Positions 34,908 through 48,202 of a DNA stretch of 64,000 nt are shown here, piece by piece. The translations under genes and the position numbers were made by a program. The notes under the pieces were generated by a model. The model was not told where the DNA came from. It saw only the letters and a list, made by a program, of their open reading frames with translations, and did no database searches. Origin of the DNA: an uncultured Clostridia bacterium. Lineage in GTDB: Bacteria; Bacillota; Clostridia; TANB77; CAG-508. The DNA lies in contig CANQFS010000002.1 of the NCBI GenBank assembly GCA_947599825.1, positions 8,669 through 72,668 on the forward strand, given 5' to 3'. Within the stretch, counting starts at the first letter, position 1. Every line of letters begins with the position of its first letter.

Positions 34908-35573
34908 CTAATTGTCCATCAAATATTCTTTTACTTCTTTTGCTACGTCTTCTGAGGTTTTGCCTGAGTGCAAATTTAGTTTTACAGCATATAATAAGTC
35001 TTGTGCTTTGTAATAATTGACTAATTGGGCAGATGTTTCGTGATATGTTTTTAATCTTTGCTTTACTGTTTCTATGTTATCATCTTCTCTTTGTACTAAT
35101 TTACTTTGGCAAATATCGCAGATTCCTTCTTGTTTTGGCTTTTTGAATTCTAAATTATAGACTTCTCTACAATTTATGTTTGAGCATACTCTTCTTTTCA
35201 CAATTCTATCTATAATATCTTCGTCAGATAGTTCTAATTCTACTGCTATGTCTATTTTCTTTCCTTGCTTTTTTAAAAAAGTATCAAATGCTTCTGCTTG
35301 CACGATGGTTCTTGGAAAGCCATCTAATATGACACCATTTTTACAATCTGGCTCTTGCAATCTTTGTTCTACAAGTTTTATTGCTAAATCATCTGGTACT
35401 AAATTTCCTTTTGATACATAAGATTCAATTTGTTTTCCTATTTCTCCTGCTTTTTTTATATAACTTCGAAATAGTTCTCCACTGGATAAATGCGTAATTC
35501 CTAATGATTCAGATAACATTTTTCCTACGGTTCCTTTTCCTGAACCTGGTTTGCCTAACATGACAATATACAT
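34908..35573 (-). CDS. adk: Adenylate kinase
   Basis: A P-loop GKPGSGKGT and a zinc-binding lid CxxC...CxxC. Confidence 0.9.
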   Translation of the reverse strand: MYIVMLGKPGSGKGTVGKMLSESLGITHLSSGELFRSYIKKAGEIGKQIESYVSKGNLVPDDLAIKLVEQRLQEPDCKNGVILDGFPRTIVQAEAFDTFLKKQGKKIDIAVELELSDEDIIDRIVKRRVCSNINCREVYNLEFKKPKQEGICDICQSKLVQREDDNIETVKQRLKTYHETSAQLVNYYKAQDLLYAVKLNLHSGKTSEDVAKEVKEYLMDN

Positions 35574-35734
35574 TTGCTACTTACTCCCTTCTCTTTTGCT
35601 TTTACTTTACTATTATACCATTTTTTAGCATACAAGTATACTATTTTTTATAAAAAAATAGATGCTTTTATTTTGCATCTATTTTTCTATTTTTCAATTT
35701 TTAATTCACAATCTAGTTTTAAAAAGAAGCAAGC

Positions 35735-35840
35735 AGTGCTAGGAAAGCTAGGCAAATAACCGGAGGCGTACGTGCTGTAGCCAAAGGATTATTTGACCGA
35801 CGCTTGACAACGCAATGCGATGCTTATTTTTCAAAACTAT
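35735..35840 (+). repeat. E-family repeat element copy 1 (TTGCTAGG...hairpin...TTGACAACGCAAtGcgATGC)
   Basis: Shares conserved termini with the copies at 38935, 45632 and 45215 (inverted). Confidence 0.55.
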
Positions 35841-37153
35841 TCTAAGAATCCTTTGTAATGTCTCATTACAAGTTGAGATTCTAATTGTTGTACTGTTTCT
35901 AAGGCAACACCTACTACAATTAAGATTGATGTTCCACCAAAGGCAATATTTAAGTTGGTAAATCTAAGTAGCATTGGAATAATCGCAATTACTGCTAAGA
36001 ATAAACCTCCAAATAGTGTAATTTTTGAGATAATAGAGCTTAAATAGTCTGTTGTTGGCTTTCCTGCTCTAATTCCTGGTATAAATCCACCATTTTTCTT
36101 AATATTGTTTGATACTTCTGCTGGGTTGAAAGTAGCATAAGTATAAAAATATGTGAAGCCTAAAATTAGTAGTAAGTATACTATTGCGTTTGCAATTGAG
36201 TATCCTACTGGAACATTTGATGTTGATGTTGCAATAGAGAATTTATAAATTACACTCCAGAACCCTGTTTCGCTTGCAATGTTTGGTACAAACATTTGAA
36301 TTATCATGGCTGGGAATGTCATAAATGATGAAGCAAAAATAACTGGCATTACACCTGCCATAGCAAGTTTTAATGGAATGTTCGTATTTTGTGCTCCTAC
36401 CATTTTTCTTCCTACTACTCTTTTTGAATATTGTACTGGGACTCTACGTTCTGCTTGTTGTACAAATACAACTCCTGCAACTAAAATAATTGCTCCTATA
36501 ATAATTCCTAGTCCAATTAGTAGTCCTGTTGTTGAGAATATTCCTGTTCCAAATATTAAATCCCAAATTGTTGTTAATCCTGATGGAAGACCTGCTATAA
36601 TACCAACAAAGATAATCATAGAAATTCCATTTCCAATTCCTTTGCTTGTTATTTGGTCTCCAAGCCACATTAAAAGTGCTGTTCCTGCCATTAATGAAAT
36701 AACGACAGTTGCTCCTGTTAAGAAGCCTGTATCCATAAAGATTCCAGAAGAACGATAAGATAGGTAAATTCCTAATCCTTCGATTAAAGCAAGGATAACC
36801 GTTACTAATTTTGTATAACGATTGATTTTTTCTCTTCCTTCTTCTCCACCTTCTTTGGTTAATCTTTCTAATGCAGGGATAACCATTGCTAATAATTGAA
36901 TAACAATAGATGCTGTAATGTATGGGCTAATTGACATTGCAAAAATAGATAAACGAGAAAAAGCTCCTCCTGAGATTAAATCTATTAATGATGCCATTCC
37001 TTGATTATTAAATGCTTCTGCAAGTGCAAAGTTATTTACCCCTGGAACAGTAATGTAACAACCTAATCTAAATACAACGATTAGAATTAGGGTATATAAT
37101 AATCTTTTTCTAACATCTGGCGTTTTTAACGCATTTTTTATTGTTTGAAACAA
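35837..37153 (-). CDS. secY: Preprotein translocase subunit SecY
   Basis: 438 aa with 10 TM helices. Confidence 0.9.
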   Translation of the reverse strand: MFQTIKNALKTPDVRKRLLYTLILIVVFRLGCYITVPGVNNFALAEAFNNQGMASLIDLISGGAFSRLSIFAMSISPYITASIVIQLLAMVIPALERLTKEGGEEGREKINRYTKLVTVILALIEGLGIYLSYRSSGIFMDTGFLTGATVVISLMAGTALLMWLGDQITSKGIGNGISMIIFVGIIAGLPSGLTTIWDLIFGTGIFSTTGLLIGLGIIIGAIILVAGVVFVQQAERRVPVQYSKRVVGRKMVGAQNTNIPLKLAMAGVMPVIFASSFMTFPAMIIQMFVPNIASETGFWSVIYKFSIATSTSNVPVGYSIANAIVYLLLILGFTYFYTYATFNPAEVSNNIKKNGGFIPGIRAGKPTTDYLSSIISKITLFGGLFLAVIAIIPMLLRFTNLNIAFGGTSILIVVGVALETVQQLESQLVMRHYKGFLE

Positions 37154-37588
37154 CTAAATCACCTCTGTCTTTCCACCTAAAGCTTCTATTTTCTCTTTAG
37201 CGCCTTTAGTGAATCGAACAGCTTTAACAGTTAATTTCTTTTCTAATGTACCAGTTGCAATTACAACGATACCATCGTTTGCTTTAGATATAATTCCATC
37301 TGCAATTAAACTTTGCGCAGTTACTTCGTCTTTGCTTGATTTGTTAAGCATTGTTAAAGTTACTTCTGTGTAATTTTTTGCATGAATATTTGTAAATCCT
37401 CTTTTTGGTAATCTTCTATATAATGGTGTTTGACCTCCTTCGAATCCACGTCTAACTCCTCCACCAGATCTTGCTTTTTGTCCTTTATGTCCTCTTCCTG
37501 ATGTTTTTCCTAGACCAGAACCGATTCCACGTCCAACTCTTTTCTTTGTTTCTGTTTTTTGTGCTGGTTTTAATTCGTCTAATTTCAT
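37154..37588 (-). CDS. rplO: 50S ribosomal protein L15
   Basis: 144 aa. Confidence 0.9.
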
Positions 37589-37696
37589 TTTAGGATTACA
37601 CCTCCTCTTTTTATTTGTGGGATTTTTCCCTTTTATACAGTATCAGAATGAAAGTTTCATCTTATCTATTCTTAATTCTGACTTTTTCATTAATAT

Positions 37697-37729
37697 ACAT
37701 TTCTTTTTCTCTTTGCTAAAAAGAAATGT
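37697..37729 (-). promoter_or_regulatory. Perfect 12-bp hairpin in the S5-L15 spacer
   Basis: The stem acatttcttttt/aaaaagaaatgt with loop ctctttgct. No U-run follows, so it is more likely a processing or structural element than a terminator. Confidence 0.35.
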
Positions 37730-37749
37730 ACAAGATTGAAAGATTTTCT

Positions 37750-37860
37750 ATTAAAAATAATATTTTAAATATTCTAAATATTATTTTTAATATTCTAAAT
37801 ATCATTTTTAATATTCTAAATATTTTTTTAATATTCTAGATATTATTTTCAATATTTTCT
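37750..37860. repeat. Tandem repeat of about 21 nt, 5 copies, where rpmD (L30) would normally sit
   Basis: The unit is attctaaatatNatttttaat, between rpsE and rplO. Confidence 0.65.
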
Positions 37861-38350
37861 ATAAAATTTCTTCTACTTTCTTTCCTCTTTTTGCTGCTAC
37901 TTGTTCGATTGTTTGCATTTTCTTTAATCCTTCGATTGTAGCATATACTACGTTTCTTGGGTTATTTGTTCCTAATACCTTTGTACGGATATCTCTGTAT
38001 CCTGCAAGTTCAATAACTGGTCTTACGCTTCCTCCTGCTATGATTCCAGTACCTTCTGCTGCTGGTTTTAGCATAACGTTTGCGCTACCAAATTTTCCAA
38101 TATATTCGTGTGGTATTGTTGTTCCTACAATTGGAACTTCTATTAAGTTCTTCTTTGCTTCTTGAATTGCTTTCTTGATAGCATCTGGAACTTCTGCTGC
38201 TTTTCCATTTCCTACTCCTACATGTCCTGCTTCGTCTCCTACAACAACGACTGCACTAAAGCGGAAAGTTCTACCACCTTTTACAACTTTTGCAACTCTA
38301 TTGATTGCAACAACTTTTTCTTTTAATTCTGGTGTATTTTCTTCGTGCAC
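37859..38350 (-). CDS. rpsE: 30S ribosomal protein S5
   Basis: A GTG start after GGAGGG ([27 protein letters not shown]). Confidence 0.85.
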
Positions 38351-38359
38351 TGTATTTTT

Positions 38360-38455
38360 CCCTCCTTTTTTCTTAAGGTAAGGGAACACATCTTTACTTT
38401 TACGTCACTTTCCTTAGTAACAAGATTTGTTTCCTATTATGAATAAGTGATGCAG
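38360..38455 (-). promoter_or_regulatory. L-family structured leader element upstream of rpsE
   Basis: The sense strand reads CATCACTTATTCATAATAGG...AAAGATGTGTTCCCTTACC...GGAGG. Confidence 0.5.
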
Positions 38456-38492
38456 TAATTTAATGTTCTCCTTATTCTTTTTTCTTTTTAAT

Positions 38493-38852
38493 TTAAAACT
38501 TTAATCCTGCTTCTCTTGCAGCATCTGCTAATTCTTTTACAACTCCGTGATAAATATATCCTCCTCTGTCATATACAACAGATTTGATATTTTTATCTAA
38601 TGCTCTTTTTGCTATTAAAGTACCTACTTCTTTTGCAGCTTCTTTATTGGCATGTTTATTTTTTACTTCTTTATCTAATGTAGAAGCTTGTGCTAAAGTT
38701 ACTCCTTTAACGTCATCAATGACTTGAACAAAAAGATTTTTATTGCTTCTATAAACACATAGTCTTGGACGTTCAGCAGTTCCACTGATTTTTCTGCGAA
38801 CTCTAATATGTCTTCTAGTTCTTTCTAATTTACGATTTACTTTAGTAATCAT
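38493..38852 (-). CDS. rplR: 50S ribosomal protein L18
   Basis: 119 aa. Confidence 0.9.
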
Positions 38853-38934
38853 ATTTTTCTCCTTTCTACTAATGTAACAGCATTAGTAATTTAGATAGTT
38901 TATAAGTTATTATGAAACAAAGCAAAAGTGGTAT

Positions 38935-39035
38935 ATTGCTAGGAAAGCAAATAAAAATTTTTGAGATAATACGAGTTTGTATATCGAAAAAATTTTTATG
39001 CAGCTTGACAACGCAAGATGCCGCTTTTCATTTGT
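38935..39035 (+). repeat. E-family repeat element copy 2
   Basis: Reads ATTGCTAGGAAAGC...long AT hairpin...GCTTGACAACGCAAGATGC. Confidence 0.55.
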
Positions 39036-39037
39036 TT

Positions 39038-39577
39038 CTACTTCTTACCTGCTTTACCTTCTTTTCTTCTAATATGCTCATCTGCATATTTAATACCTTT
39101 ACCATGATATACTTCTGGTGGTCTCTTTGTTCTTACTACTGCTGCTGTTTGACCAACTGCTTCTTTATCTATTCCTTTAACTATAATTGTATTTGGGTTT
39201 GGAACATCAAATGTAATTCCTGCAGGTTCTTCCATTTCTACTGGGTGAGAGTAACCTAAATTCATTACTAATTTCTTTCCTTGTTTTTGTGCTCTATATC
39301 CAACACCAACAATTTGTAATTCTTTTTGATATTCATTACGAACACCTTCTATCATGTTTGCTATTAAAGTTCTTGTTAATCCGTGTAAACTTCTATTTGC
39401 TGCTTCATCATCTGGTCTTGTAACATGAATTACATTTCCTTCAATTGCAACACTCATGTTTTTGTGGATTTCTCTTTCTAATGTTCCTTTAGGTCCTTTT
39501 ACCGTTAAATGTGTTCCATCTAATTTTACTTCTACACCTTCTGGTACGGTAATAGGTTTATTTCCTATTCTTGACAT
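39038..39577 (-). CDS. rplF: 50S ribosomal protein L6
   Basis: 179 aa. Confidence 0.9.
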
Positions 39578-39607
39578 GACTGGTTTTCCTCCTTTATTTA
39601 TTTTATA

Positions 39608-40006
39608 TTACCATACGTAAGCTAGTACTTCTCCACCTAATCCTTCATTTCTTGCTTCTTTATCTGTTTTTATTCCTTTTGAAGTAGAAATTAAGGCTAT
39701 TCCTAGTCCATTTAATACTTGTGGTAATTCGTCCTTTGATGCATATACTCTTAGCCCTGGTTTGCTAATTCTTTTTATTCCGTCAATGACTCTAGCACCT
39801 TTTTCATCATATTTTAATGTAACTCTTATGATTCCTTGTGCATCATCTTTTATTTCTTCAAATGATTTGATATATCCTTCTTCAAATAGAATTTTAGCAA
39901 TTGCTTTTTTCATATTAGAAGCTGGAACATCAACAGTTTTATGTTTTGAACTATTAGCGTTTCTAATTCTTGTTAGCATATCTGCTATTGGGTCTGTTGT
40001 GTTCAT
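39608..40006 (-). CDS. rpsH: 30S ribosomal protein S8
   Basis: Starts [18 protein letters not shown]. The longer ORF on the track was trimmed. Confidence 0.88.
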
Positions 40007-40037
40007 ATTAAATATTTCCCTCCTTTTTTCCTTTATT

Positions 40038-40223
40038 CTACCAACTTGCTTTTTTAACTCCAGGAATTTCACCTTTATGTGCTAATTCTCTAAAACATAC
40101 ACGGCAAATTCCATATTTTCTAATATAAGCATGTGGTCTTCCGCAAAGTTTGCATCTATTATATTCTCTTGTTTTGTATTTTTGCTCTCTTGCTTGCTTA
40201 ACTTTTAAAGATTTCTTAGCCAT
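40038..40223 (-). CDS. rpsN: 30S ribosomal protein S14 (Zn-ribbon type Z)
   Basis: 61 aa with CxxC...CxxC. Confidence 0.9.
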
Positions 40224-40357
40224 TAGCTATTTTCTCCTTTCACTAATTTGACAGGGGGACTCATTTTACATTTTTGTCACTTTCACTTGGGCTAAGGTAT
40301 GTTTTCTCCCTTGTGAATGAGTGTTCAAATGTTTTACTATTCTCCTGCTATTTAATT
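40224..40357 (-). promoter_or_regulatory. L-family (subfamily B) structured element between rplE and rpsN
   Basis: The sense strand reads CATTTGAACACTCATTCACAAGGG...ACATACCTTAGCCC...AAGTGAC, paralogous to the element upstream of rplN. Confidence 0.5.
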
Positions 40358-40897
40358 TTAATTTTTGAATGGCATTCCTAATAATGTTAGTAATTCTCTT
40401 GCTTCTTCGTCTGTTTTAGCGGTAGTAACAAATATAATATCCATACCTCTAATTTTATCTACTTTATCATATTCGATTTCAGGGAAGATTAATTGTTCTT
40501 TTACACCCATAGAGTAGTTTCCTCTACCATCAAAAGAATTTTTTGATACTCCTCTAAAATCTCTTACTCTTGGAAGTGCTACATTAAATAGTTTGTATGC
40601 AAAATCATACATTTTTCCTTGTCTTAATGTAACTTTGCAACCCATATTAACGCCTTCTCTTATTTTGAAAGCAGCAATTGCTTTCTTTGCTTTTGTTACA
40701 ATTGGTGTTTGACCAGTTATAAGTTTAATATCATTGATTGCGTTTTCTAATGACTTTGGATTGTCTTTGATATCTCCTAATCCAACATTGATTACGATTT
40801 TTTCTAATTTTGGAACTTCCATAACTGATTTATAATTGAATTTTTTCATTAATGCTGGAATTACTTCTTTTTGATATTGTTCTTTTAATATTTCCAT
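40358..40897 (-). CDS. rplE: 50S ribosomal protein L5
   Basis: 179 aa. Confidence 0.9.
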
Positions 40898-40933
40898 AAT
40901 CTATGTATTTCCTCCTTTCATTTGACACAAGTC

Positions 40934-41242
40934 TTATTTAATTTTTGCGTTGCATTTTTTACAAACACGTACTTTTTGATCTTTTTCTATTTCATAACCA
41001 ATTTTTGTAGCCTTTCCACATTTTGGGCATACTACATTTACTTTACTTGCGTGAATAGCGCATTCTACTGGTATAATACCGCCTTCTTCACCTTGTTTTC
41101 TTGGTTTTACATGTTTTTTTCTAACATTTATACCTTTTACTATAATTTTCTCTGTTTTTGGTATTACTTCTAATACTTCTCCTGTTTTACCTTTATCATT
41201 TCCAGATAAAACTTTAACGTTATCACCTTTTTTTATTTTCAT
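40934..41242 (-). CDS. rplX: 50S ribosomal protein L24 (with a C-terminal CxxC...CxxC)
   Basis: A KOW domain plus CPKCGK...CKKCN. Confidence 0.88.
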   Translation of the reverse strand: MKIKKGDNVKVLSGNDKGKTGEVLEVIPKTEKIIVKGINVRKKHVKPRKQGEEGGIIPVECAIHASKVNVVCPKCGKATKIGYEIEKDQKVRVCKKCNAKIK

Positions 41243-41373
41243 TTTTCTTTTTTCACCTCTTTTTTTAGAATTTTAACTTCTATTAAAGAAACTTTTTTTA
41301 ATAATTCGCATATTAATTTTTAATGCTTTAACTTGTAAGTGCAAATATTTATTAATAATTTATTGCTAACAGA

Positions 41374-41742
41374 TTAAAGAACTTCTGGAGCTAAAGATAA
41401 AATTTTCATATAATCTTTATCTCTTAACTCTCTAGCAACAGGGCCAAATATACGAGTTCCTCTTGGGTTTTTATCTTCTCTTATAATAACTGCTGCATTT
41501 TCATCAAATCTTACATAGGATCCATCTGCTCTTCTAATTGGCTTCTTTGTTCTTACTACTACTGCTTTTACAACATCACCTTTTTTTACAACTCCACCAG
41601 GTGTTGCAGTTTTAACAGAAGCAACGATTACGTCACCAACACCAGCATATTTACGATAAGATCCACCTAAACATCTAATGCACATAATTTCTTTTGCACC
41701 AGTGTTATCAGCTACTTTTAATATGGATTGTTGTTGTACCAT
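41374..41742 (-). CDS. rplN: 50S ribosomal protein L14
   Basis: 122 aa. Confidence 0.9.
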
Positions 41743-41947
41743 TTTCGCTTTTCCTCCTTTACTCTATCTTGTTTCAATTATCTAACGGTGACACATCTTT
41801 ACCTATGGTCATTTCTTTTTGGATAAGATATGTCCCACGCCGAGCTTTTTACATTATTTATACCTTTTGGTCACTTCTACACGGGCTAAGGTATGTTACC
41901 TACCCTTGTGATTAAGTGTTCAAATGGTTTGAATATTCCCTATTTTT
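41743..41947 (-). promoter_or_regulatory. L-family long composite element upstream of rplN
   Basis: It contains both the subfamily-B core (CATTTGAACACTTAATCACAAGGG...CCTTAGCCC) and the subfamily-A motifs (GGGACATATCTTATCC, AAAGATGTGTCACC) ahead of the GGAGG. Confidence 0.5.
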
Positions 41948-42217
41948 TTATTTTATAATAGCCTTTTCTACTATTTTTACAACTCTGAATCTTTTATCTT
42001 TTGATAAAGGTCTTGTTTCCATGACTTGTACTTTATCTCCGATTCCACATTCATTGTTTTCATCATGAGCTTTTAATGTATAAGTTCTTTTTTGAATTTT
42101 TCCGTAAGTTTTATTTTTCTCGTTTGTCTCTACAGCTACTACTACAGTTTTGTCCATCTTATTAGATTTTACAATCCCTGTAAAAGTTTTACGAAGATTT
42201 CTTTCTTCCATATTCAA
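41948..42217 (-). CDS. rpsQ: 30S ribosomal protein S17
   Basis: The true start is probably MEERN, 2 codons in. Confidence 0.88.
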
Positions 42218-42242
42218 ATCTCCTTTCTTTCAATGTTTTCCT

Positions 42243-42455
42243 TTATTTATTGTCTTCTAATTTTCTTTCTGTTAATACAGTATTGATTTTTGCAATGTCT
42301 TTTTTCACTTCTTTAATTTTCATAGGATTATCTAATCCGTTTGTTGCTAAGCTAAATCTTAGTTTGAATAATTCAGATTTTAATTCTCCTAATTCTTTTT
42401 CTAGATCTGGTGAAGACATTTTTCTTATTTCATTAATCTTCATCACTCTCACCAC
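42243..42455 (-). CDS. rpmC: 50S ribosomal protein L29
   Basis: The true start is probably MKINEIRK. Confidence 0.85.
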
Positions 42456-42873
42456 CTATTTCAGTTTCTTTTTTAACAAATTTACACTTAACAGATAGCT
42501 TATTTCCAGCAAGTCTTAGTGCTTCTCTTGCTGTTTCTTCAGGTACTCCTGCTATTTCAAACATAACTCTTCCTGGTTTTACAGCTGCTACCCAATATTC
42601 TACTGCTCCTTTACCTTTACCCATACGAGTTTCTGCTGGTTTCTTTGTTATTGGTTTATCTGGGAAGATTTTTATCCAAACCTTTCCACCTCTTTTAATA
42701 TAACGAGTCATAGCAACACGGGCAGATTCAATTTGGTTTGTTGTAATTAAACCTGCTTCTAATGTTTGAAGTCCATATTCACCATCTGATACATAATTTC
42801 CTCTTGTTGCCTTTCCTCTATTTCTACCTTTTTGTTGTTTTCTATATTTGGTTCTTTTTGGCATTAATGGCAT
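42433..42873 (-). CDS. rplP: 50S ribosomal protein L16
   Basis: 146 aa. Confidence 0.9.
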
Positions 42874-43532
42874 TATTTGTCTCCTCCTTCCACTTTCTTT
42901 TTAGCTGGAAGAATTTCTCCTTTATAAATCCAAACTTTTACACCGATTTTTCCATATGTTGTATCTGCTTCTGCAAATCCATAGTCAATATCAGCTCTTA
43001 AAGTTTGAAGTGGTATGGTTCCTTCTTTGTAGAATTCTGTTCTTGCCATATCTGCTCCACCTAATCTTCCAGATACTGAAGTTTTAATTCCTAAAGCACC
43101 TGCTTTCATTGTTTTTTGCATACATTGTTTCATGGCTCTACGGAAGGAAATTCTTCTTTCTAGTTGTCCTGCAATGTTTTCTGCAACTAATTGTGCATTA
43201 ACATCTACATCTTTTACTTCAACAATATTTAAGTTTACTTCTTTTCCTATCATTTTTTGTAATTCATTTTTTAATGTTTCAGCTAAGTTTCCACCTTTAC
43301 CAATTACTAATCCTGGTTTTGCTGTGTAAACATTAACTTTTACAAATTTAGCAGTTCTTTCAATTTCAACTTTTGAAATTCCGCTAATATATAATTTTTT
43401 CTTTACATACTCACGAATTTTGTGGTCTTCTACTAGGTAGTTTGCAAAGTCTTTTTTGTTTGCATACCATTTTGAATCCCAGTCTTTTATAACACCAACT
43501 CTTAATCCATGAGGATCCATTTTTTGTCCCAT
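42873..43532 (-). CDS. rpsC: 30S ribosomal protein S3
   Basis: 219 aa, starting [13 protein letters not shown]. Confidence 0.9.
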
Positions 43533-43551
43533 TGTATATAAGCTCCTTTCT

Positions 43552-43920
43552 TTAATCTCTTTCTCTTAATACGATTGTAATATGGCTTGTTCTTTTACGA
43601 ATTCTAACAGCAGAACCTTTTGCAGCTGGTCTAATTCTTTTTAGAGTTGGACCTTGGTTTGCATATACTTCTGCAACGTATAATTTTTCATGTGCCATAT
43701 GGTGATTGTTTTCAGCGTTTGCAATAGCTGATTTTAATAATTTTTCTACTATTTCAGAGGCAGCCTTTGGTGTAAATTTAACAATTGCTAATGCTTCATC
43801 TACACTTTTTCCTCTAATTAAATCTATTACGATTTTTACTTTTCTACTTGAAATTCTAGCATATTTAAGGGTTGCTGCGGCTTCTGGAATAATAACTTCT
43901 TGCATTTCTTCTTTTTCCAC
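43552..43920 (-). CDS. rplV: 50S ribosomal protein L22
   Basis: A GTG start 8 nt after GGAGG. Confidence 0.85.
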
Positions 43921-43926
43921 GTTATT

Positions 43927-44017
43927 TTCCTCCATTCCTCGGTAAGGGGACACATCTTTCCCTTATGTCATTCCTCTAGGGACAAAATATGTCCCCTTCT
44001 TATGAATAAGTGATGTC
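43927..44017 (-). promoter_or_regulatory. L-family structured leader element upstream of rplV
   Basis: The sense strand reads TGACATCACTTATTCATAAGAAGGGGACATATTTTGTCCCTAGAGGAATGACATAAGGGAAAGATGTGTCCCCTTACCGAGGAATGGAGG. Confidence 0.55.
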
Positions 44018-44061
44018 AGTATTTTTGTGTTCGCCCTATTTTTACTTTTATTTTTATTTTT

Positions 44062-44340
44062 TTACTGTTTTGTTGTTGTTTTCTCTCCTGCATGACCTTT
44101 AAAAGTTCTTGTTGGAGCGAATTCTCCTAATTTATGACCTATCATTTCTTCTGTAATATAAACTGGCACATGTTTTCTACCATCATGAACAGCAATTGTG
44201 TGTCCTACCATTTGAGGGTATATAGTAGAAGCTCTTGACCATGTTTTTAATACTTCTTTTGCTCCTGTTTCGTTCATTGCTTCAATTCTTTTTAATAGTT
44301 CTGGAGCAACAAATGGAGTCTTTTTACTTGATCTTGACAT
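44062..44340 (-). CDS. rpsS: 30S ribosomal protein S19
   Basis: 92 aa. Confidence 0.9.
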
Positions 44341-44356
44341 ATCTTATTTTCCCTCC

Positions 44357-45184
44357 TTATTTTCTTCTCTTAACAATCATTTTGTTAGATTTTTTATTTT
44401 TCTTTCTAGTCTTGTATCCTAGAGCTGGTTTACCCCAAGGTGTCATTGGTCCTGCGTGTCCTACTGGAGCTCTACCTTCACCACCACCATGAGGGTGATC
44501 TACTGGGTTCATAACAGAACCTCTAACTGTTGGACGAATTCCTAAATGTCTTGTTCTTCCTGCTTTACCTAGTTTTACGTTTTCATGATCTGTGTTTCCT
44601 ACAGTTCCGATAGTTGCTCTACATCTTGTCATAACTAATCTCATTTCTCCAGATGGAAGTCTTACGTGAGCATATTTTCCTTCTTTAGCCATTAATTGTG
44701 CTTCTTGGCCAGCTGCTCTTACCATTTTTCCACCTTGGCCTGGATTTAATTCTATGTTATGAATCATAGTACCTACTGGAATTGCTTCAATTGGCATTGC
44801 ATTTCCTGGTTTAATATCTGCTTTTTGTCCAGATACTACTTTGTCACCATCGGTTAGTCCTACTGGTGCTAAGATGTAGCTTAAAGTTCCATCTTCATAT
44901 TTTATTAAAGCGATGTTAGCACTTCTGTTTGGGTCATATTCAATACCTACTACAGTTGCTTCCATATCATCTTTGTTTCTTTTAAAATCAATTACTCTAT
45001 ATTTTTGTCTATTTCCTCCACCTTGGTGACGAACTGTTACTCTACCATAAGAGTTTCTTCCTGCTTTTTCTTTCTTTACTGTTAATAAAGATTTTTCAGG
45101 AGTTTTTTTGGTAATTTCGTCAAATGTAGAAACTGTTGTGTTTCTTAATGATGGGGTTGTTGGTCTAAAGTGTTTCATTCCCAT
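44357..45184 (-). CDS. rplB: 50S ribosomal protein L2
   Basis: Starts [11 protein letters not shown], with AAGGAG 7 nt upstream. The N-terminal extension on the ORF track was rejected. Confidence 0.88.
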
Positions 45185-45214
45185 TTTGTTTCTCCTTTCG
45201 GATTTATGAAAAAC

Positions 45215-45302
45215 TTCGTCTTGCGTTGTCAAACTTCGCTTCGAAATTTCTTGGTGTACCAATGTACACCTGCGGATTTCTTGCTCGTTTTCCTAGCAAT
45301 AC
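45215..45302 (-). repeat. E-family repeat element copy 4, in inverted orientation relative to copies 1-3
   Basis: The plus strand reads GTCTTGCGTTGTCAAAC...GGTGTACCAATGTACACC...TTTCCTAGCAAT. It forms an inverted pair with copy 3 around the small ORF. Confidence 0.55.
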
Positions 45303-45410
45303 TCGTTTTTGCTAAATCCTCTTACTTTCTTAATATTTACGGTTATTTTTCCTGCCCCGCATTAGCAGATATTCTTTCTTTTCCGAGTTATTTCTCGATA
45401 AAATCTTTAT

Positions 45411-45584
45411 TTATCTTTCTTCTCTTCTTTTTAAAATTTCTTCTCCATTTACAAATCTTTCTAATGCTTTGTCAAATATTTCTTCTTGATTTTCTGGTGG
45501 TAAACAATATTTTGCTATAAATCCATCTTCTGGAATTTTATTTCTTTTTAAGAATTCTTTTCTTTTTTCACTTGTTTCGCTCAT
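45411..45584 (-). CDS. Small hypothetical protein (57 aa) inserted between rplW and rplB
   Basis: An ORF flanked by inverted E-elements, with RBS GGAAGGTG. No homology was recognised. Confidence 0.35.
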   Translation of the reverse strand: MSETSEKRKEFLKRNKIPEDGFIAKYCLPPENQEEIFDKALERFVNGEEILKRREER

Positions 45585-45631
45585 ATTTTTCACCTTCCTC
45601 TATTTTTAGACAAACGAATCAAAATTAGTAG

Positions 45632-45745
45632 ATTGCTAGGCAAATTTAATAATTAACACCTGAGGCGTACGTGTGTACGTTGAAGGTTTAATTATTAAAT
45701 TTAACGACGCAAGATGCTGATTTTCATTCGTTTAGGCTAAGCACC
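45632..45745 (+). repeat. E-family repeat element copy 3
   Basis: Reads ATTGCTAGGCAAAT...18-bp AT-rich stem around CGTACGTGTGTACG...TTAACGACGCAAGATGC. Confidence 0.55.
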
Positions 45746-47450: not shown

Positions 47451-47777
47451 CTATAATTTGATTTCGATATCAACACCAGCTGGTAAATCAATTTTCATTA
47501 AACTATCAACTGTTTTTTGTGTTGGATAAAGAATGTCAATTAATCTTTTATGTGTTCTCATTTCAAATTGCTCTCTTGAATCTTTGTGTTTGTGTGGAGA
47601 ACGTAAGATTGTAACGATTTCTTTTTGTGTTGGTAATGGAATAGGTCCTGAAACTTTTGAGCCTGTTCTTTTAGCAGTTTCTACTATTTGTTCAGCAGAC
47701 TTTTCTAGAAGTTCAGCATCATAAGCTTTTAGTCTTATTCTCATTTTCTCACTTCCTACTTTGTTTGATGTTGCCAT
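47451..47777 (-). CDS. rpsJ: 30S ribosomal protein S10
   Basis: Starts [20 protein letters not shown] with GGAGG 8 nt upstream. The ORF-track extension was rejected. Confidence 0.88.
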
Positions 47778-47784
47778 TTGTTTT

Positions 47785-47878
47785 TCCTCCTTTTTCTTCG
47801 GTAAGGGTACGCATCTTTCCTTAACGTCATTTTCACTAAGGATAAGATACATTCCCTTCTTGTGAATAAATGATGTCA
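47785..47878 (-). promoter_or_regulatory. L-family structured leader element upstream of rpsJ
   Basis: The sense strand reads TGACATCATTTATTCACAAGAAGGGAATGTATCTTATCCTTAG...TTAAGGAAAGATGCGTACCCTTACCGAAGAAAAAGGAGG. Confidence 0.55.
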
Positions 47879-48202
47879 TTTTTTTGATGCTCGCCTTCCT
47901 AAAATATTTTGCTAGCAGAAAGTTTTAAAACGCACCCTGGTGTTTCTTTATTTACCAATATAAAACCCAATGATTGCATGAAAAACGATTCTAAGAATCG
48001 CATGTTTATCTAGTACGGAGCTTTTCTTCGCTATCGCTTGAAAATTCCTACTATCTAAAAATCTTGGGATAAGTGCTTTTATTTTTTTATAAAACTTACC
48101 GCCTGGTCTAAGCCATGACATACTCCATAGAAGTTCCCTCCACCTTACGCATTGTTAAGATGTAGCCACATTCTACTTCATCGCTTTGTTTACATGCTTA
48201 TT

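Follow-up and report, generated by a model that had tools for sequence, protein, structure and literature searches.

Multi-copy, extragenic, imperfect palindromes that lie mostly just past stop codons are described as the REP/BIME and REPIN-RAYT systems of Enterobacteria and Pseudomonas, in which REPINs form hairpins of about 100 nt that are inherited vertically and copied within genomes. Effects proposed for REP and REPIN sequences are on termination, mRNA stability and supercoiling (PMC3733652). Repeats sharing the copy number, placement, length and inheritance of these elements were found in a 64,000-nt stretch of an uncultured Clostridia bacterium (assembly GCA_947599825.1, contig CANQFS010000002.1, positions 8,669 to 72,668; hereafter the window), in which all four copies lie in the 10 kb that make up the ribosomal superoperon and 0 in the remaining 54 kb. 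We lean, by a little, towards reading them as members of a lineage-specific family of dispersed hairpin-forming palindromic repeats which acts like REP/REPIN sequences, is unrelated to them in sequence, and would affect transcription according to its orientation. Few parts of a bacterial genome are as compact and as conserved as the operons of ribosomal proteins, and the presence there of structured repeats of 120 nt, in more than 100 species, is unusual.

Other described elements also invite comparison. Integron attC sites are likewise defined by their folded strand and not by sequence, are strand-specific, combine conserved unpaired bases with a variable terminal structure, span about 60-140 nt and stand right after the stop codon of the preceding open reading frame (ORF). 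The Correia/NEMIS repeats of Neisseria, the enterobacterial ERIC and the pneumococcal BOX/RUP sequences are, as here, non-coding dispersed hairpin repeats of about 100-150 bp that are co-transcribed with their neighbours, and their effects on mRNA depend on orientation. Bidirectional intrinsic terminators share the arrangement of an A-run, a hairpin and a U-run on either strand.

The four window copies (Table 1) were recovered by a full covariance-model scan of the 64 kb with filters off, using a model built from 121 family members. Their E-values ranged from 2e-22 to 1e-14 (cmsearch), no copy was called elsewhere in the window, and the next-best matches, at 32 bits or less, were the reverse strands of the same four copies. 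The original prediction, made from the letters of this stretch, had proposed these four copies, the first three antisense to the ribosomal protein genes and the fourth inverted, and both the number and the orientations were borne out, copies 1-3 being antisense to secY/adk, rplF/rplR and rplW; Pfam identifies the neighbours as SecY, Adk, L6, L18, L23 (rplW) and L2 (rplB), with all these genes on the minus strand. The sites had been placed correctly and the extents too short, as pairing runs about 20-22 nt past the conserved core on both sides. The description of conserved ends enclosing different interiors applies at all four sites, although the ends deviate in copies 1, 3 and 4: copy 1, the most diverged of the four, begins GTGCTAGGAAA and finishes ...ACGCAATGCGATGC, the terminal sequence of copy 3 is TTTAACGACGCAAGATGC, and that of copy 4 is ...GCAAGACGAAG. 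Taken by themselves, the short termini barely exceed a shuffled AT-rich background (7 matches to TTGCTAGGMAA in the window, at most one mismatch allowed, vs 3.1 expected); the combined pattern TGCTAGG...ACGCAA, with a hairpin between, occurs at the four sites exclusively. The similarity of the copies as modelled over the whole element is highly significant, and the prediction stands in this respect. No decayed copies were found in the other long operon spacers of the superoperon (L14-L24, L5-S14, S10-L3).

Table 1. Positions of the repeat copies and of the other features discussed in the text (positions without a locus number refer to the window).
Feature	Position	Strand	Score or property	Context
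Copy 1	35718..35836 (core 35736-35816)	+	74.8 bits, E 1.3e-14	secY stop codon at 35837 on one side, adk start at 35573 on the other; antisense to both
Copy 2 (subfamily A1)	38918..39037	+	108.5 bits; fold -29.2 kcal/mol, z -4.0	3' foot touches rplF stop codon at 39038; rplR start 38852; antisense to both
Copy 3	45615..45733	+	101.7 bits; fold -36.0 kcal/mol, z -6.85	3' foot touches rplW (L23) stop codon (ORF end 45737); antisense to rplW
Copy 4	45200..45317	-	95.0 bits; fold -26.7 kcal/mol, z -3.9	sense; 3' foot ~15 nt upstream of rplB start codon (45184), directly ahead of the ribosome-binding site (RBS)
57-codon ORF (MSETSEKRKEF...)	45411..45584	-	strong RBS	between copies 3 and 4
Leader-like RNA motif	45335..45410	-		between small ORF and copy 4
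rplE-rpsN spacer	40221-40360		137 nt	
S10 ORF	47451-47879	-	142 aa	
Y1_Tnp gene (IS200-like, PF01797)	L088:5577-6305	+	E 3.5e-13; 242 aa, C-terminal extension; single copy	
Flip/remnant comparison	L140:7509-7560 vs L139:7258-7377 and L088:2834-2953			same site, after the transketolase gene
Variant subfamily	L102:5960-6315; L118:6650-7170			tandem with standard copies

Beyond the window, at least 118 loci in species-representative genomes match one exact pattern derived from the copies in the ribosomal operon, at least 115 of them true and three being chance matches. Among the matches listed, all true loci belong to metagenome-assembled genomes of uncultured gut Clostridia (human, chicken, rabbit, goat and mouse), carriers including Clostridium sp. 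CAG:508 and a Candidatus Scatovivens. In the 865 kb of collected loci nhmmer identified 182 copies, with up to 5 within 3 kb. The catalogues returned nothing comparable: Rfam 15 at the gathering threshold gave two tRNAs only in the window, permissive scans over the copies gave chance-level matches only (E >=0.1), a loose pattern run on viral contigs gave 15 matches, all of them chance and non-hairpin, and searches of the literature by topic and by conserved sequence strings found nothing relevant to the repeat. Membership of a known small RNA (sRNA) or leader family, which would have spoken against the prediction, thus found no Rfam match, and the family appears to be undescribed, of the extragenic hairpin repeat kind and outside every named family. 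The covariance model lets annotators flag these elements, which at present go without annotation and are able to disrupt assemblies or lead ORF callers astray. For CAG:508-like Clostridia they may also be of use as markers of the lineage.

Every copy forms a single long, imperfect hairpin of about 120 bp, consisting of a core of about 80 nt (78-86 nt, mostly 80-82) and arms of about 20 nt. The strand that reads 5'-TTGCTAGGM...RACRACGCAAG-3', here called forward and beginning TTGCTAGG, folds as a single long hairpin laid out in the order A-run, outer stem, basal helix P0, P1, asymmetric loop, P2, GA/GA loop, apical stem and U-run. P0 varies by subtype and always pairs (GUGGUAU/AUGCCGC, UUAGUAU/AUGCUGAU, or AAAC-GAG-UA/GA-CGAA-GUUU), and P1 comprises 4 bp, UUGC/GCAA or occasionally UUAC/GUAA or UAAC/GUUA. 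They are followed by a conserved purine-rich asymmetric internal loop with UAGGM opposite RACRAC, by the long P2, whose sequence is wholly different between subfamilies, and by an upper internal loop carrying GA on both strands, beneath an apical stem of the form RYRUAC-loop-GUAYRY. The unpaired bases U23 A24 G25 G26 and A170 C171. A173 C174 are nearly invariant, as is an A-G mismatch in the basal helix.

Covariation supports this fold. When 144 copies were aligned to the model, standard pairs filled 95.8% of pair cells vs 78.4% in shuffles, a control in which the structure was slid by 1-3 columns left 36-48% paired, and changes on both sides were observed at 21/24 pairs. The outermost 6-8 bp are locus-specific yet complementary, being 90-100% paired in true flank pairs vs 45-70% in permuted ones. 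Since the stems are unrelated between subfamilies, function cannot require a particular stem sequence. A canonical K-turn was considered for the lower loop and rejected, as the 3' strand is longer by four bases and 60% of copies have C in place of the key A. There is a likeness between the forward 5' end, TATATT(G)CTAGGAA, and the left arm and centre of the Bacillus subtilis dif site, which offers a lead and not a test; the element has no counterpart of the XerD arm of dif.

Measured against the described systems, the family differs from REP sequences in lacking a GTAG or CGTC tag in the 144-copy consensus, its conserved 5' end being GTAT(A)TTGCTAGG, and from REPINs in forming a single 120-nt hairpin with asymmetric loops instead of two inverted REPs of 20-40 nt. 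It is set apart from both by stems unrelated between subfamilies, copies inside ribosomal operons, a 95% orientation bias and the lack of any flanking RAYT in the loci collected. MITE-like (miniature inverted-repeat transposable element) repeats differ in other respects: here no target-site duplication and no related insertion sequence were found in the loci collected, the outer stems are locus-specific, and the conserved parts are loops, not terminal inverted repeats.

The position of the copies relative to genes is highly regular. Among the 163 copies with both neighbours called, 131 are antisense to both. The 3' end of the model falls at a median of 0.5 nt from the stop codon of the converging gene (interquartile range -1 to 4), the stop codon merging into the terminal A-run of the hairpin, and the next gene starts at a median of 76 nt past the other end of the element. 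Stop-adjacent copies are antisense in 118 cases vs 8 sense, about two of the eight being apparently spurious ORF calls. Most copies lie between co-directional operon genes, and 7 between convergent genes; the operons are mainly highly expressed ones for translation, fatty-acid metabolism and glycolysis. The neighbouring genes, checked by Pfam, mostly serve the ribosome or translation (S7, S12, L14, L11, L24, S14, L1, L10, L2, L23, L6, L18), others being accB (biotin carboxyl carrier protein)/fabZ/fabF, enolase (eno), ackA, pyrG, tkt and def. A minor sense class stands directly upstream of the RBS, ahead of rplB in 7 genomes including that of the window, and also ahead of rplC, pyrG, ackA and rpsH; these sense copies speak against an absolute terminator in the forward hairpin.

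The strong enrichment beside ribosomal-protein genes and the sense copy ahead of rplB, which all genomes examined possess next to a conserved leader-like motif, could be taken to mean that the elements are autoregulatory sites of ribosomal proteins, that is, rRNA leader mimics reused at many junctions. We hold this to be extremely improbable, as the same element flanks the metabolic and other genes from accB/fabZ/fabF to def listed above, some 95% of the copies beside a stop codon run antisense to the mRNA, and no known leader family matches.

The distance from the core to the next start codon is often 40-55 nt, with no promoter signal at a fixed offset on either strand, and sense transcription must therefore read through the reverse-oriented copy. 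This bears on whether the copies, each passed on vertically at its own junction and with nothing mobile about them, are simply hairpins that stabilise mRNA or ordinary intrinsic (bidirectional) terminators, which is very unlikely. Their A-run, hairpin and U-run can indeed be read on both strands, they stand directly after stop codons, some separate convergent genes, and a spacer of 180 nt comes after the sense copy that follows the transketolase gene, but the copies are not ordinary terminators, because they sit inside tight operons that must be read through. At 120 nt they are also far longer than bidirectional terminators, contain multiple helices and asymmetric loops conserved in sequence, and are strongly strand-asymmetric in stability; near-identical sequences recur at unrelated junctions, one junction may hold different subfamilies in different species, and a generic terminator scan, within its stem and loop limits, called none of the copies. 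A terminator-promoter cassette was likewise rejected: the element end holds a -35-like TTGMTT, yet 17 nt further downstream there is no excess of -10-like hexamers, and the spacers are often too short.

The two strands of the element are unequal. Over 121 copies the forward fold averages -37.6 vs -28.7 kcal/mol for the reverse, with a mean gain of 8.8 kcal/mol, and the forward strand is the stabler in 111/121 copies, or 119/121 with DNA parameters. With longer flanks included the values are -42.4 vs -33.9 kcal/mol, the gap being divided evenly between the basal and inner halves. The asymmetry arises because, where the forward strand has conserved G-U pairs and purine-purine mismatches, the complement is left with C-A and pyrimidine mismatches. 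The GC skew of the element is +0.18 (forward strand G-rich) and that of its surroundings -0.23; as the two are opposite in sign, the asymmetry is not a background mutation bias.

A better-folding forward strand whose G-U and tandem G-A elements are those usual in structured RNA, a hairpin and subsequent U-run that together resemble an sRNA 3' end, and conservation above that of the flanking genes are also what independent antisense sRNAs of about 120 nt, or the 3' ends of such sRNAs, would display if transcribed against the operon to act on mRNAs or bind a protein. The original prediction had listed small antisense RNA genes among its options. This option is distinctly unlikely and finds no support: at no constant distance upstream is there a promoter, the 5' flanks differ from locus to locus, with paired outer stems that reach the neighbouring stop codon, some copies are sense-oriented inside 5' untranslated regions, back-to-back tandem copies leave no room for promoters, and Rfam holds no match.

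The same sequences occur at many places. Members of subfamilies A1 (18 copies), B1 (12) and A2 (8), which share 92% identity or more over 70 nt or longer, stand at many different junctions, both within single genomes and across species. When the same junctions were compared across relatives, as had been proposed for the window sites, presence and absence proved patchy, with copies at 11/11 L23-L2, 6/7 S12-S7, 7/10 L6-L18 and 5/10 L14-L24 junctions, and none at L24-L5 (0/13) or L1-L10 (0/6). Orthologous copies are 93-100% identical vs 67-93% for their flanks, which are mostly coding. Window copy 2 is 100% identical to its orthologue in L048 (flanks 82-93%), the copies of L121 and L122 are 96% identical (flanks 67-78%), and those of L054 and L126 94% (flanks 79-81%). 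Since stem sequence is free to vary, identity within subfamilies would point to recent copying or continuing homogenisation, and gene conversion or a process of the copy-and-paste type appears to propagate the family or keep it homogeneous. Copies that are complete hairpins and better conserved than the flanking genes do not look like the integration scars that had also been suggested.

Tandem, partial and variant copies are present among the loci. A variant subfamily with another basal helix (TTGACAAGGCAAAA ... ACACYAATGTC) occurs in tandem with standard copies in L102 and L118 (Table 1). L118 also contains a duplicated block of about 225 nt, and there a standard copy breaks off exactly after TTGCTAGGC. 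In the rplF-rplR spacer of L108 a copy appears broken near its apex by a second complete copy, and the second arm of the outer copy is mostly gone; either one element was inserted into another, or a duplication occurred and a deletion came after it. At one site, after the transketolase gene, two close relatives with an identical Y1_Tnp carry either a full sense copy or an inverted, internally deleted remnant, and elements can therefore flip and decay in place. The proposal that the repeats resemble MITEs is right as far as dispersal goes, given the near-identical subfamilies at many junctions, the patchy occupancy and the tandem and partial copies. Mechanism and form do not accord with it: target-site duplications were looked for at the hairpin boundaries and none were seen, no autonomous partner or transposase ORF lies between inverted pairs in any collected locus, and the arms are not simple terminal inverted repeats but parts of a structured hairpin with conserved asymmetric loops.

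An alternative places the function in folded single-stranded DNA, the forward hairpin being the substrate of an HUH/Y1 transposase (RAYT/IS200) or of a tyrosine recombinase (as for integron attC and CTX-phi attP), the conserved unpaired bases being recognition or cleavage features and the consequences for RNA side effects. This is unlikely, although a good deal accords with it: structure is kept while stem sequences vary, the unpaired bases and the basal A-G mismatch are nearly invariant, folding is strand-specific, copies follow ORF stop codons directly as attC sites do, the partial copy of L118 stops exactly after TAGGC beside the duplicated block, an element has been inverted in situ between close relatives, and one element-bearing genome holds a single-copy Y1_Tnp gene. 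That gene, in L088, was alone in matching tblastn queries with IS200, IS608 and RAYT in about 0.9 Mb of loci. It lies between recD2 and a comF-like gene, with the nearest repeat copy 2.6 kb off and not flanking it, and its homologues at 40-43% identity (L142-L146) occur in various housekeeping contexts, in loci of their own that hold no repeat copies. Its C-terminal extension resembles the Y1 subclass without known REP partners (PMC6006769). As a candidate partner of the repeats, the L088 protein is only a lead.

The base of the element is paired, GUAUUGC/GCAAGAY with an A-G mismatch, with no GTT/AAC pairing and no R-box core, and on reading the consensus the R-boxes of attC (RYYYAAC/GTTRRRY) are absent. 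No integrase lies beside the window copies, and there is no attI and no cassette array; the neighbours are core genes in conserved order, with copies in both orientations. For most copies the folding strand would lie on the leading-strand template, the opposite of the IS608 paradigm.

We return to the reading of a lineage-specific, REP/REPIN-like repeat family with an effect on transcription that depends on orientation. Under it, selection would maintain the orientation bias of about 95% antisense among stop-adjacent copies. Facing sense, the forward hairpin with its U-run would attenuate or terminate transcription of the operon; facing antisense, it could halt antisense RNA polymerases before they enter the gene, and its weaker complement, once read through, would leave the mRNA with a hairpin between cistrons or at the 3' end. 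Ahead of the RBSs of rplB, rplC, pyrG and ackA, the sense copies could be leader hairpins or attenuators. A bolder version of this mechanism, which we consider doubtful, would make the elements lineage-wide one-way transcription valves, a module copied by a dedicated mechanism onto the stop codons of almost all genes with high expression. Through its G-U pairs and tandem G-A mismatches the module would then present polymerases arriving from the antisense side with a strong hairpin and a U-run, the complement would be weak enough for sense read-through, and operons would be shielded from head-on antisense transcription.

Several observations weigh against the favoured reading. The enrichment for ribosomal genes may be inflated, the search pattern having come from copies in the ribosomal operon and the number of matching loci being a lower bound, and sense copies right ahead of essential genes such as rplB are hard to square with a strong forward terminator. 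Neither strand has clearly better U-runs than the other, and GC skew tracks gene direction in these short loci, which makes orientation to transcription inseparable from orientation to replication. On the side of dispersal, direct repeats of 2-6 nt at the hairpin boundaries were no commoner than in permuted pairs, no enzyme or autonomous element linked to the repeats was found in about 0.9 Mb of loci, and outer base pairs that are locus-specific yet complementary are not explained by simple cut-and-paste. The complementary outer stems suggest that elements insert into the middle of palindromes already present, or that template switching extends the palindrome outwards.

This uncultured but abundant gut lineage offers a natural system for asking how hairpin repeats can spread when neither target-site duplications nor an obvious transposase accompany them. 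The family poses the question of why the repeats persist while being more conserved than ribosomal genes, and whether strand asymmetry in a palindrome can make transcription or mRNA processing direction-dependent.

Copies 3 and 4 form an inverted pair in the L23-L2 spacer that is kept in 11/11 genomes having this junction. The small ORF between them encodes a 57-aa protein which is found, identical and with the same neighbours, on 5 metagenome contigs and which matches no Pfam family. The cargo slot itself varies, holding in other genomes nothing or an unrelated ORF of 96-134 aa (MDKQE...). The ORF was accordingly rejected as a component of the element, being not conserved in other genomes and without a Pfam family, and a composite transposon formed by the two copies was rejected as well, its cargo being small, variable and without a transposase.

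A leader-like RNA motif separates the small ORF from copy 4. It is present in all 6 of the L23-L2 spacers examined and consists of a hairpin CGRG...CYCG and a helix UGCGGR...YCCGUA, with two covarying pairs and a possible pseudoknot via CUGC/GCAG. Rfam returned chance-level matches only (E 0.55 and 1.8), and the motif may be an undescribed rplB (L2) leader.

Two further features of the superoperon were observed in the window. The ORF called for S10 has 142 aa, of which the Pfam S10 domain spans residues 47-141 only, and the same 142-aa call was made on the metagenome contig L001; the extra residues are either an N-terminal extension or an upstream start miscall. The rplE-rpsN spacer, which holds no repeat, has a more stable gene-strand fold than its shuffled versions (z -3.2) and may contain a separate structured leader.

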